In this document: positions 50,968 through 52,833 of the stretch, piece after piece | How the letters are laid out: each line of letters starts with the position of its first letter | Position numbering within the stretch: position 1 is the first letter of the stretch | Source: Escherichia virus TH10 | Sequence record: MT446388.1 | Reading direction: 5' to 3' (one strand) | Length of the DNA: 64,000 bases | Position numbers and translations under genes: made by a program | Notes under the pieces: generated by a model | Told to the model about the DNA's origin: nothing | What the model saw: only the letters and a program-made list of their open reading frames with translations | Database searches by the model: none

Positions 50968-51353
50968 AATGACCTCAAAGTTATATTAAATTTTGTATTA
51001 CATTGAGTATAAAAATAAGCTATAACACCTGACTTGTCAACAGATTTTATAGCTTATTTGGCAGATTTTTTATAAGGCTACTGCCATCCTTCCAAACTAT
51101 ACCAAACCTAACCCCACCTAACCCCACCTAACCCTACCACACCAGACCTAGCCTAACCTTGTTAAAAGACCCTCTTAAAGACCTTTTAAAAAGGTAAGTC
51201 TCATTTTAATGTAGCTGAGACTAACTACCCATACCAGACCCTACCTTACCAAACCAGACCTCACTCTACCCCACCATACCGTATACTACCTCATTAAAAG
51301 ACCCTCTTAAAGACCTTTTAAAAAGGAGCCTCCGAAGAGGCTACCTAGTCAAC
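50968..51353. repeat. CA-rich repeat region R1 with conserved core
   Basis: iterated CCAGACC/CCTTACC/CCTAACC units; about 65-bp core (51164-51240) near-identical to 52575-52641; terminator-like AGCCTCCGAAGAGGCT at about 51327. Confidence 0.7.
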
Positions 51354-51794
51354 TTAGAAAGGTTTTCTGCGTTGCTTGTTAATGTTAGCTTTCATAGCAG
51401 CTAAGTGGTTTTGCTGTTCAATTAGTCGTGAACGTTCTTGGTGGCTAAGTGCCATAGTGTTCACATTCTCAATCGCTTGAGTGGCTTGCTTTAAAGCACG
51501 ACCAATCTTACCAGACATTTTACGTTTTGCAATAGTTGCTTGATGCTTAGGTTCAACCACACGATAACCAACACCCATTGAAGCAACCAGATAAATCTTC
51601 TCTTCTTTAAGAAGCTTCTCAATAAACTTCTCAAGTCGGTTTAGACGTGTAAGCGCATAAGCCTTCATTTCATCTTCGTACTTAACAATGTCACCTTGAT
51701 AAGTTGGTTTCACAATACCTAAGAAGGTATCCATCTCAGAATGTGATACAGTGTCACCGTAACTAAACTTTGCTGCTAATGCTTTTGTATTCAT
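51354..51794 (-). CDS. hypothetical protein (146 aa)
   Basis: ORF flanked by repeat regions. Confidence 0.55.
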   Translation of the reverse strand: MNTKALAAKFSYGDTVSHSEMDTFLGIVKPTYQGDIVKYEDEMKAYALTRLNRLEKFIEKLLKEEKIYLVASMGVGYRVVEPKHQATIAKRKMSGKIGRALKQATQAIENVNTMALSHQERSRLIEQQNHLAAMKANINKQRRKPF

Positions 51795-51796
51795 AA

Positions 51797-52399
51797 TTAA
51801 ACGTTACCTTCTGAAATAACTTCTACAGAAAAACGACCAAAGCGTGGACGCCAATCACCTACACCACAAAGGTTGCCAGCATTTTCAAGAACCATCAGAA
51901 GTTCCTCTTTGGTGATTTGCTCTTCATCGAACATCAAACCGAACTCTACAGACCAGTCACGGAAGATTGGACGGTAGCTCATAACTCGTGCTGTACCAAT
52001 CTTAACAGACTTAGCATAGATGAAGTCTGGATTCTTAGCAAGTTCTTGTGGGTTTGCTGGACAGTTCTTAATAGTCATTGGGAAGACTACATCTGTCAGC
52101 ATAATGGCTCGGTCAATTACCTTACCAAGTTTGTTGAGTTTTGCACCAGACTTGATACAAGCCTCAATCATCTCACCGTTCATAACAAAACCAAGTTGCT
52201 CATCGTAGTAACAAGAAGTTACCAGTTGACTTTCTGCTAAGAGCGCATAGTCTTCGTCAGTCTTTTTACGTTTACTGGACAGAGACTTGTGATATTTTGT
52301 CAGAGGGTTTAATGGGTCTGACAGCGTATCGTTATGGCTCAGGAAAGGACGAGTACCAGTGATTTTGATATTTAACAGTTTCATAGCATTTAGCTCCAC
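51797..52399 (-). CDS. hypothetical protein (200 aa)
   Basis: ORF flanked by repeat regions. Confidence 0.55.
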
Positions 52400-52833
52400 A
52401 CTTTAGTTGATTGTTAAGTTGTTTGTAAAGAACCCTCAACAGAAGACTCTTTAGAAACTTGGTAGATTTTTAACGTGGCTACTACCATCCACCCATACCA
52501 TACCGAACCTTACCTTACCAAACCAGACCGCGCCTTACCAAACCAGACCAAACATTACTTTACCCTACCTCATTAAAAAACCCTCTTAAAGACCTTTTAA
52601 AAAGGTAAGTCTCATTTTAATGTAGCTGAGACTAACTACCCGCACTTTACCGCACCGGACCTTACCGGACCGCACATCACCGCACTAAACCAGACATCAC
52701 ATTACCTGACCACACCAAACCAAACATCACATTACTTAAAAACCCTCTTAGAAGACTCTTAAGTGATGCTGGTGAGTACCCGTTGGTTTATGCTGCTCAG
52801 TATACTCACCAAATTTTCTATGTCAACAACTTT
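52400..52833. repeat. CA-rich repeat region R2 with conserved core
   Basis: iterated ACCAGACC/CCGCAC/CCTTACC units; core 52575-52641 matches R1; partial third copy at about 52736. Confidence 0.7.

Follow-up and report, generated by a model that had tools for sequence, protein, structure and literature searches.

CRISPR arrays consist of direct repeats of 23–55 nt with unique spacers between them, accompanied by cas1/cas2 and effector cas genes, while toxin–antitoxin systems of the ToxIN type combine an array of ~36-nt RNA repeats with a terminator and the gene of an endoribonuclease toxin. In the trp leader of Bacillus, about 11 units made of (G/U)AG triplets and 2-nt spacers are bound by the TRAP (MtrB) ring, which controls a terminator in cis. 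The PeSL 'mobile regulatory cassettes' of T4-type phages are promoter-plus-stem-loop repeats that flank variable ORFs.

Escherichia phage SUSP1 carries the closest described system, classed as type II VIPR (Viral Interference Programmable Repeat), reported in two 2026 bioRxiv preprints (10.64898/2026.04.26.720920 and 10.64898/2026.04.26.720927) and represented by the structure PDB 36pp; the literature support for VIPR comes from preprints. According to the accessible text of both, VIPR is a newly described way in which RNA reads DNA, its code being discontinuous, and CRISPR effectors are proposed to descend from it; Vipr polymerises on GGY motifs, pairing with DNA is through the NN dinucleotides and skips every third base, and the transcription of competing elements is silenced (10.64898/2026.04.26.720920, 10.64898/2026.04.26.720927). 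The same text describes vrRNAs of 9–16 tandem YNNGG repeats, names the gene adjoining vipr in SUSP1 vap1 and states a DNA-binding role for its product, and reports that vrRNA expression, RNP formation, the pairing rule and silencing were shown in SUSP1 by small-RNA sequencing, pull-down, binding and GFP/lambda assays (10.64898/2026.04.26.720920, 10.64898/2026.04.26.720927). Vipr is presented there as a minimal RAMP protein with an RRM core, a glycine-rich loop, a thumb and GGY-binding residues, and its contact residues are named (10.64898/2026.04.26.720927).

We analysed a stretch of 64,000 nt of Escherichia virus TH10 (MT446388.1), hereafter the window, from a FelixO1-like phage of the Ounavirinae, genus Felixounavirus. 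Positions 51057–52826 almost certainly represent a type II VIPR locus of the SUSP1 clade (Table 1), since they hold a Vipr RAMP protein, a vipr–vap1 operon, YNNGG arrays, hairpin/pseudoknot tails and clade-level NN targets. The system is already published for near-identical phages, and the present locus is a confirmation of it rather than a discovery.

Table 1. Features of the VIPR locus and its immediate surroundings, in the order of transcription
Feature	Position in window	Strand	Description
Sigma-70-type promoter	52799–52826	−	TTGACA-16-TATACT, 11/12 consensus; right after the DNA ligase stop codon, reads into the upstream vrRNA region
vrRNA-B1	52599–52755	−	Box 52755–52735; 19 in-phase units 52734–52640; tail 52639 to ~52599
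vrRNA-B2	52458–52593	−	Box 52593–52573; 16 units 52572–52493; tail 52492 to ~52458
vipr	51797–52384	−	195-aa RAMP-like effector, polymerising on vrRNA; 191/195 identical to PDB 36pp_D
vap1	51354–51794	−	146-aa Vipr-accessory protein; 99% identical to the SUSP1 gene adjoining vipr; phrog_5926
Intrinsic terminator after vap1	51327–51342	−	AGCCTCTTCGGAGGCT then CCTTTTT; annotated terminator in phage ASO1B
vrRNA-A1	51188–51314	−	Box 51314–51294; 13 units 51293–51229; tail 51228 to ~51188, B1 tail type
vrRNA-A2	51057–51182	−	Box 51182–51162; 14 units 51161–51092; tail 51091 to ~51057
Sigma-70-type promoter of next gene (50584–50967)	51012–51040	−	TTGACA-17-TATTTT, 10/12; annotated promoter in ASO1B; outside the VIPR module proper

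The deduced Vipr aligned over its full length with the 'SUSP1 Vipr protein' of PDB 36pp (98% identity, E = 6e-128), which exceeds the cut-off of >90% Vipr identity given for clade assignment in the accessible preprint text, and it retains all published RNA/DNA contact residues (H17, K33, E71, M72, R138, C173, D177, W178 and R179); it also matches phrog_4652. Its amino-acid identity among phages is 97–100%, indicating evident constraint. A first reading of this DNA, made from the sequence only, had placed two genes between two non-coding regions, and both genes and regions (386 and 434 bp) were found where it had put them, except that the vipr start is most likely the ATG at 52384 (GGAG 10 nt upstream) and less likely the GTG at 52399 that it had chosen, since the ATG is the start annotated in relatives and fits the solved protein. 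The vap1 gene starts 2 nt downstream of vipr. Vap1 had no sequence match in Pfam or PDB, and its single-sequence AlphaFold model was weak (pLDDT 68), with no Foldseek match at E ≤ 0.001; the top matches of this weak model, all non-significant, were winged-helix regulators, which is compatible with the published DNA-binding role and is no evidence for it. Searches of Pfam and PADLOC gave no cas-like, toxin or defence-system match for either protein. The neighbours of the cassette are genes for a ligase, a transcriptional regulator, a dihydrofolate reductase and a thymidylate synthase.

The CA-rich iterations that the sequence-only reading had noticed in both intergenic regions are real, but they are not 7-mers: the repeat has a strict period of 5 nt, NNACC on the plus strand and YNNGG on the transcribed minus strand. 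A scan of the window for ACC recurring in phase every 5 nt gave 6 or more of 12 units only at 51067–51317 and 52463–52738, with a best-phase count of 5 or lower elsewhere. These regions resolve into four arrays, two per intergenic region, each composed of a 21-nt box, a tract of 13–19 units and a structured tail. The near-identical core of about 65 bp with a hairpin (AGTCTC..GAGACT) that had been described in each region corresponds to 63 identical nucleotides at 51170–51232 and 52581–52643, and the sub-motif CCCTCTTAAAGACCTTTTAAAAAGG occurs three times against 0 expected. Over 839 units from 69 unique arrays of 30 phages, in which the modal array has 12 units, position 1 was a pyrimidine in 99.6%, position 4 a G in 84.5% and position 5 a G in 98%, with an information content of 1.48, 0.09, 0.13, 1.23 and 1.85 bits at positions 1–5, so that GGY is conserved and NN hypervariable. 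Folding of the tracts was no stronger than that of shuffles (z from −1.2 to +0.4), as expected for a protein-bound single-stranded guide.

The tails are structured. The tail of B1 forms the hairpin AGTCTC/GAGACT and the pseudoknot GTAG/CTAC, followed by a T-run, that of B2 the hairpin GGTAG/CTACC and the pseudoknot GTGG/CCAC, and that of A2 the hairpin GGCAG/CTGCC and the pseudoknot AAGG/CCTT, so that three pseudoknot variants occur. Across 22 distinct tails, which represent only about five independent tail types, 95.5% of the cells of the 10 pairs of hairpin and 4-bp pseudoknot were paired, compared with 30–43% in slid controls, and 9 of the 10 pairs had changed on both sides. In each of the four arrays of the window the box is intact and all pairs of the tail are present. 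B1 has more repeats than the published range, and six of its units are YNNTG/YNNAG; it resembles a fusion of two 9-unit guides with no tail between them, and part of it may be decaying. The NN codes are AA GA TT TT GT CA AA GA CT TT GC GA GC CC AA CC GC AA GC in B1, GA AG AA AA TT CT TT AA GC CT TT AA AA TC AT AT in B2, GA AG AC AT GG AG GA CT TT AA AG CT AT in A1 and AA TA TA CT GT AG TA GG TA GG TA TT AT TT in A2. The NN code of A1 is identical in one relative (L006), and that of B2 is also present in three relatives. An Rfam search of 50900–52900, with E up to 5, returned only chance snoRNA/sRNA matches.

The 21-nt box has exactly four matches in the window, against 0.04 expected. A copy stands before every vrRNA and before the DNA polymerase gene, and the box is seen again at the satellite site to which guide B2 matches. 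It is a putative promoter or processing signal, and may be a phage-specific transcription signal, in which case part of the VIPR repertoire would aim at the helper-sensing promoter of the satellite. The promoter next to the ligase gene is kept in relatives, including array-less ones, where it lies directly 5′ of the next gene (as in L018).

The NN codes were compared with a set of 23 satellite loci, out of about 500 satellite-bearing genomes. With a 1-nt skip, 42 of 61 guides from 30 related phages reached at least 80% NN match, the target threshold found in the accessible preprint text, while skips of 0, 2 and 3 nt gave 1, 1 and 3 such guides and shuffled guides gave 4. The likely targets are ~10-kb E. 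coli islands with copies of the phage family's tape-measure and baseplate genes, and the apparently targeted satellite is carried by ~9% of complete E. coli genomes. For the guides of the window, the full-length NN match was 81% (A1), 71% (B1), 66% (B2) and 71% (A2), only A1 attaining the threshold, while B1, B2 and A2 match along no more than half of their units; since so few of the satellite-bearing genomes are represented in the set, better matches probably exist. The A1 site (21 of 26 NN positions) lies ~150 nt upstream of the satellite's gene for a Dam methyltransferase, and 1 of 200 shuffles was as good. The longest perfect runs, 9+9 units in B1, 8 in B2, 7 in A1 and 8 in A2, were reached by 0–2 of 200 shuffles. 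Under the 1-nt-skip rule, units 0–8 and 9–17 of B1 each match a different satellite gene perfectly (0/200 shuffles). For B2, eight consecutive perfect units fall on a box-like intergenic site that lies ~200 nt upstream of the structural operon of the satellite (2/200 shuffles), and for A2, eight such units fall on a site in the baseplate gene of satellite L064 (0/200 shuffles), at which the phage's own baseplate-hub gene has no match. In the A2 match the 3′-proximal units are mismatched; R-loop formation is reported to start at 3′-proximal units (10.64898/2026.04.26.720920, 10.64898/2026.04.26.720927).

No self-targets of the four guides were found within the window, and no in-register blocks of units common to guides of different phages were found for B1 or A2. 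A blastn search with the intergenic region that holds A1 and A2 against 5,426 E. coli genomes, for vrRNAs borne by satellites, gave no match. A genome-contig search with the satellite tape-measure protein gave two loci only, both from Escherichia, and the target set was not widened by it. Separately, one satellite-like contig of IMG/VR (L065) carries a vrRNA with a covarying tail.

Among 29 related IMG/VR phage loci, the two genes were present in 18 and absent from 11, and the cassette was found in 117 phage records compared with 258 that match the region, which is evidence that the VIPR module is an accessory cassette. FelixO1 lacks the two genes and has decayed arrays, and some relatives (e.g. 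L018) have no arrays at all. Several of the 11 empty sites keep a single hybrid array, ligase-proximal in type on its 5′ side and distal in its 3′ tail (as in L008), of the kind that recombination between the flanking arrays would leave. Presence/absence polymorphism with one repeat left behind had been predicted by the sequence-only reading. Relative to SUSP1-like phages, vipr has 94–96% nucleotide identity (85–91% at third codon positions), the ligase gene 85–90% and the downstream gene ~50% in an ungapped comparison, from which ligase identities near 0.5 at some loci were left out as an artefact of such a comparison across an indel; conservation between genera is higher in the cassette than in its flanks. 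The module always occupies a single locus, flanked by the ligase gene and the gene that follows it, and nothing suggested an autonomous mobile element, no recombinase being associated with it.

The distribution of the cassette, the hybrid single arrays, the conservation across genera, and the promoter-like and terminator-like sites within the intergenic regions also fit an explanation in which the repeats on either side serve mainly for recombination, or are regulatory duplicates, and mobilise or control two genes that are unrelated to them. We consider this very improbable, however, since a repeat that served recombination or acted as a promoter would need the reverse of a fixed GGY with hypervariable NN, the variable bases fit satellite DNA when read with one particular gapped rule, the cassette protein is a solved RNA-guided effector that binds exactly these repeats, and the cassette sits at one fixed locus with no recombinase. 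The earlier idea of a recombination-mobilised module thus survives as far as polymorphism, hybrid arrays and cassette conservation are concerned, but the repeats are guide-RNA genes and not scars, and a single locus is involved; the companion idea of a duplicated regulatory region for the minus-strand genes was not upheld, the repeats being vrRNA genes and not ordinary duplicated promoters. A VIPR system in decay, in which Vipr and Vap1 may be intact while some or all vrRNAs, B1 above all, are degenerate, non-silencing relics, would account for the variant units and fused appearance of B1 and for the full-length matches of only 66–71% of B1, B2 and A2, and FelixO1 shows that arrays decay within this phage group. 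We nevertheless regard decay as unlikely in view of the box and tail preserved in 4/4 arrays, the perfect runs of 8–9 units in excess of shuffles, the constraint on Vipr and the small size of the target set.

The pentamers might also act without a guide RNA. A triplet and spacer at period 5, in about 11–12 units followed by a hairpin and a T-run, recalls the TRAP-bound trp leader; a G-rich transcript downstream of a strong promoter among replication genes recalls a G-quadruplex/R-loop origin; and the order array, terminator, gene recalls the type III toxin–antitoxin ToxIN. The chance that any of these applies is negligible: Pfam and PADLOC gave no TRAP, ToxN or defence-system homologue, Rfam gave no family, the tracts lack structure beyond that of shuffles, and spacer dinucleotides that hold target information are predicted by none of the three models. 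All three were dropped on the PDB 36pp match and the target analysis. For a TRAP-type leader, the triplet is GGY and the spacers carry information on targets in trans; for ToxIN, the downstream protein is Vipr; and the arrays cannot be an essential origin, because some relatives have none. CRISPR-Cas was likewise rejected, given a repeat period of 5 nt and a cassette with no cas-like match in Pfam or PADLOC.

Taken together, protein identity, repeat anatomy, tail covariation and 1-nt-skip matches point to the VIPR mechanism. Four small vrRNA genes, two on each side of the vipr–vap1 operon, would each provide a YNNGG tract with a hairpin/pseudoknot tail, and each repeat would be bound by one Vipr protomer, with the GGY bases buried and the two variable bases exposed. 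With its 3′ end capped by the pseudoknot, the filament would read dsDNA as NNx, pairing two bases and skipping one, and the resulting gapped R-loop/triplex would block transcription. As the likely targets are the E. coli satellite islands with phage-type tape-measure and baseplate genes, the role of the locus would be to defend the phage against a parasite. Because of the near-identity to SUSP1, we infer that the vrRNAs of the present phage are expressed and active, including co-purification with Vipr and silencing.

The locus is a textbook VIPR case, recognisable from raw sequence alone, and our computations, made independently on other data, reproduce the published rules, namely fixed GGY with variable NN, covariation of the tail pseudoknot, and 1-nt-skip matches to E. 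coli satellites as targets. What is gained in practice is modest: four vrRNA genes of a Felixounavirus are mapped exactly, the module is seen to be accessory, the frequency of the apparent target satellite is estimated, and the orphan guides and the 5′ box provide leads. Three cassette-less phages (L004, L016 and L028) keep intact orphan vrRNAs with 87–92% NN match to satellites. These could be used in trans with the Vipr of a co-infecting relative, or could titrate the Vipr of a rival; that guides and effector segregate separately in the Felixounavirus population, with the vipr–vap1 pair gained and lost as the vrRNA genes on either side recombine, is conceivable, though doubtful. The accessible text of the two VIPR preprints makes no mention of orphan guides or of the box as a signal.

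When the locus is set beside known systems, it shares with PeSL cassettes repeated intergenic promoter/hairpin sequences that bracket accessory genes, present or absent by relative and plausibly added or removed by recombination between the repeats; unlike these, the VIPR repeats are functional genes in their own right, for guide RNAs whose informational positions are hypervariable, and exchange occurs at a single locus. With the TRAP–trp leader it shares an oligomeric protein that binds one conserved triplet per subunit across 2-nt spacers, but TRAP spacers hold no information and attenuation is in cis, whereas in VIPR it is the spacers that guide the complex, which acts on DNA in trans. The likeness to class 1 CRISPR-Cas, in which Cas7 RAMP proteins form a filament on crRNA, lies, according to the accessible preprint text, in a RAMP-fold protein that polymerises along a guide RNA, a thumb that flips bases out at a fixed period, a conserved structured end that caps a variable guide, and a competing genetic element as target (10.64898/2026.04.26.720920, 10.64898/2026.04.26.720927). 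VIPR differs in having no repeat–spacer array, cas1/cas2 or known acquisition step, in a discontinuous guide, of which 2/5 RNA bases read 2/3 DNA bases, and in being phage-encoded and silencing rather than cleaving.

The closest likeness is to the VIPR locus of SUSP1, with 98% identity of Vipr and 99% of vap1, the same site, after the DNA ligase gene and before the one that follows, the same gene order (ligase, array or arrays, vipr, vap1, arrays), YNNGG arrays with hairpin/pseudoknot tails, and E. coli satellite islands as the same predicted class of targets. Our parse of the SUSP1 locus gave one upstream and three downstream vrRNAs, with 12 units in vrRNA1, in agreement with the accessible preprint text, whereas the TH10 locus has two upstream and two downstream. 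All four NN codes of the TH10 locus differ from those of SUSP1, one of its arrays is unusually long and partly degenerate, and it resides in a Felixounavirus, while SUSP1 is a Suspvirus.

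The window belongs to a FelixO1-like myophage, and a 2.8-kb query around the locus matched 258 phage records, nearly all from Felixounavirus and its relatives, at 80–99 % identity. All genes of the locus region lie on the minus strand, and two of them are enclosed by the intergenic regions IG-A and IG-B (see table). The sequence-only reading had described a two-gene cassette bracketed by CA-rich repeats with a shared core, and we found this description to hold: both intergenic regions consist of NNACC (plus strand) repeating strictly every 5 nt, they contain the only in-phase ACC periodicity in a scan of the whole 64 kb, and they share an identical core of 63 nt.

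Features of the VIPR locus and related elements in the window
Feature	Coordinates	Strand	Remarks
DNA polymerase start	58608
Box-like motif TCTTTAAGAG..TTTTAA	58741	minus	~130 nt upstream of the DNA polymerase start
171-aa ORF	55367–55882	minus	Situated between the polymerase gene and the small genes preceding the ligase gene
DNA ligase gene	52834–53970	minus	Highest coordinates of the region
Near-consensus promoter TTGACA-16-TATACT	52826–52799	minus	Directly past the ligase stop codon; reads into IG-B
IG-B, intergenic, 434 bp			Between the DNA ligase gene and the 200-codon ORF
In-phase ACC periodicity	52463–52738
Shared core	52581–52643
200-codon ORF (vipr)	51797–52399	minus	Start at ATG 52384 gives 195 aa
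146-codon ORF (vap1)	51354–51794	minus
Intrinsic terminator			After the 146-codon ORF
IG-A, intergenic, 386 bp			Between the 146-codon ORF and the small signal-peptide gene
In-phase ACC periodicity	51067–51317
Shared core	51170–51232
Second promoter			Ahead of the small signal-peptide gene
Small signal-peptide protein gene	50584–50967	minus	Lowest coordinates of the region

Before any match was found, the anatomy of the repeats (a conserved triplet with a 2-nt spacer, about 12 units and a hairpin) suggested an oligomeric RNA-binding protein. The decisive result was a sequence match: compared with PDB sequences, the 200-codon ORF hit chain 36pp_D, 'SUSP1 Vipr protein', with E = 7e-128, and when read from ATG 52384 it was identical at 191 of 195 positions over the full length. 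VIPR (Viral Interference Programmable Repeat) is the subject of two 2026 bioRxiv papers, on its discovery (10.64898/2026.04.26.720920) and on cryo-EM (10.64898/2026.04.26.720927); they describe minimal loci in which vipr, coding for a primitive RAMP that is kin of Cas5/6/7, is joined by the accessory gene vap, and intergenic regions on either side encode vrRNAs of ~100 nt. The contact residues H17, K33, E71, M72, R138, C173, D177, W178 and R179 are all kept in the window's Vipr, which also agrees with the solved chain at position 175, since both carry V, though the paper names T175. The vap1 product (146 codons) was 99 % identical to that of SUSP1, and the SUSP1 locus (L020) occupies this site too, with its genes in the same order. 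Parsed in the same way, L020 gave one upstream and three downstream arrays, with 12 units in vrRNA1, matching the papers' report. The locus in the window is genuine and well formed, and it belongs to type II VIPR of the SUSP1 clade. Distant full-length Vipr homologues with 23–44 % identity were seen in Gordonia, Mycobacterium, Pseudomonas and Listonella phages of the phage collection, and relatives at 37–40 % in IMG/VR loci L051–L056.

On the transcribed strand the repeats read as YNNGG units, in two arrays per intergenic region: 19 (B1) and 16 (B2) units in IG-B, and 13 (A1) and 14 (A2) in IG-A. A 21-nt box, TCTTYTAAGAGGGTYTTTTAA, abuts each array on its 5′ side (the window has four matches, one at each array, where 0.04 would be expected), and a hairpin-containing tail of ~35–40 nt lies 3′ of each, followed by a T-run at two of the four arrays. 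According to the VIPR papers, 9–16 YNNGG repeats make up a vrRNA together with a 3′ tail that is invariant and, in the SUSP1 clade, contains a pseudoknot. Unit statistics come from the 839 units of 69 unique arrays, out of 85 tailed arrays extracted from the window together with 29 related IMG/VR loci; 12 units was the modal length of an array. Information was concentrated at position 1 (T 89 %, C 10.6 %; 1.48 bits), position 4 (G 84.5 %, T 9.7 %; 1.23 bits) and position 5 (G 98 %; 1.85 bits), while positions 2 and 3 were variable (0.09 and 0.13 bits). B1 exceeds the published range and has six units of the form YNNTG/YNNAG; it may be two fused guides, or one guide that is decaying.

The 22 distinct tails fall into few types, with stems AGTCTC/GAGACT, AATCGG/YCGATT, GGTAG/CTACC and GGCAG/CTGCC and a conserved loop. 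The bases directly 3′ of the last unit form a 4-bp interaction with this loop, which covaries as GTAG/CTAC, GTGG/CCAC and AAGG/CCTT. In the tail alignment 95.5 % of cells were paired, with changes on both sides in nine of ten pairs; the covariation score was equalled by none of 500 shuffles, and sliding the partners by 1–3 columns reduced pairing to 30–43 %. This support is strong but not deep, because independent tail types are few (about five). A vrRNA with at least nine YNNGG units also occurs on a satellite-like contig (L065, IMGVR_UViG_2737471852_000002, minus-strand index 8158–8250), where its tail combines the GTGG/CCAC pseudoknot with another stem, GTCG/CGAC, in which the changes compensate each other; the VIPR paper likewise remarks that some satellites encode vrRNAs.

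[quoted passage not shown] Using the baseplate-hub gene (37433–38227) as query against 5,426 complete E. coli genomes, we found matching chromosomal islands in 474, whose baseplate gene reached up to 92–94 % DNA identity over 544 nt; ~9 % of these genomes (474–505) carry such a satellite island. The islands span ~10 kb and encode a Dam methyltransferase, an HTH protein and a serine recombinase, along with small ORFs and genes for a tape measure and a baseplate protein; the VIPR paper lists this content for the satellite. They are highly mosaic (L058–L060, L071–L080) and occupy several chromosomal sites (mdtG, a DUF72 gene near yecD, near tonB and near wrbA). When 61 guides of at least nine units from 30 phages were scanned against 23 satellite loci (365 kb), 42 reached at least 80 % NN match with a 1-nt skip, compared with one, one and three for skips of 0, 2 and 3 nt, and four when unit order was shuffled under the 1-nt rule. 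These counts reproduce the published pairing rule independently, in a different phage sample.

The window's own guides also matched satellites under the 1-nt skip, with runs of at most six units under other rules. A1 paired at 21 of 26 NN positions (81 %) ~150 nt upstream of the Dam methyltransferase gene (L071, L076; observed run reached by 1/200 shuffles). Units 0–8 of B1 gave nine perfect units in a satellite ORF of ~710 nt, and units 9–17 another nine in the tape-measure gene, where the skipped base is the codon wobble position (0/200 shuffles each). Eight perfect units were found for A2 in the baseplate gene of L064 (0/200) and for B2 in an intergenic site ~200 nt upstream of the structural operon (2/200). 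Among the four guides, only A1 passed the published full-length threshold in these 23 loci; B1, B2 and A2 may have better targets among the ~500 mosaic satellite variants beyond the sampled set, or may be partly obsolete. A 1-nt-skip search for self-targets across the window gave no site above the shuffled range, and the perfect 3-nt-skip 'hits' inside it were arrays matching themselves.

The present analysis shows what the effector is, how the vrRNAs are built and, through covariation, how their tails are structured, and that the guides are complementary to satellites in a gapped manner. In this phage, vrRNAs would be transcribed from the promoter past the ligase gene, perhaps also from each box, and would end at the tails, and satellite genes would be silenced during infection. 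A fifth, box-like motif stands upstream of the DNA polymerase gene; copies also occur upstream of the satellites' structural operon behind a terminator-like hairpin (L060:8512, L076:6775, L080:6734), and the copies stand behind a hairpin or palindrome. The site matched by B2 overlaps the satellite motif. These positions suggest, without proving, a phage-specific transcription signal copied by the satellite and targeted by the phage.

The presence/absence polymorphism predicted by the sequence-only reading proved real, as arrays and cassette vary among relatives at one locus: the cassette was present in 18 of 29 IMG/VR relatives and absent from 11, FelixO1 lacks it, and Vipr at ≥90 % identity occurred in 117 phage-collection records against the 258 matching the region. 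The vipr–vap1 cassette is an accessory module. Three states were found: neither arrays nor cassette (L018, L019, L022), one or two vrRNAs only (L004, L008, L016, L028, L030, L031), and both. A Vipr scan of IMG/VR found none on the six array-only contigs, yet some vipr-less relatives still have whole vrRNA genes, including box, units and tail, and the orphan arrays of L004, L016 and L028 matched satellites at 87–92 % of NN positions; in FelixO1 just a decayed array is left (L003:3030–3100). The suggestion of a recombination-mobilised module or a duplicated regulatory region stood in part. The cassette polymorphism favours it, as does the single array of L008, which has an upstream-type 5′ flank and a downstream-type tail, exactly what a crossover between the flanking arrays would leave; against it, the repeats are genes for guide RNAs rather than simple recombination or promoter repeats. 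The nucleotide comparison with SUSP1-like phages fits an exchange of the module through homologous recombination: vipr and vap1 are 93–98 % identical (third positions 82–93 %), the ligase gene 85–90 %, and the gene after the cassette ~50 % when compared without gaps (tblastn: 34 % amino-acid identity). Farther upstream, the SUSP1 gene at the position that corresponds to the 171-aa ORF carries the annotation HNH endonuclease, and the ORF may accordingly be a homing-type insertion.

VIPR is already in the literature for near-identical phages. For SUSP1, the two papers demonstrate vrRNA expression, ribonucleoprotein formation, a filament in which each repeat binds one protomer, pairing by the NNx rule, and repression of transcription on either strand without a PAM, which vap1 enhances. 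To this system, remarkable in itself, the instance in the window adds no more than a map and a few leads, besides checking it independently.
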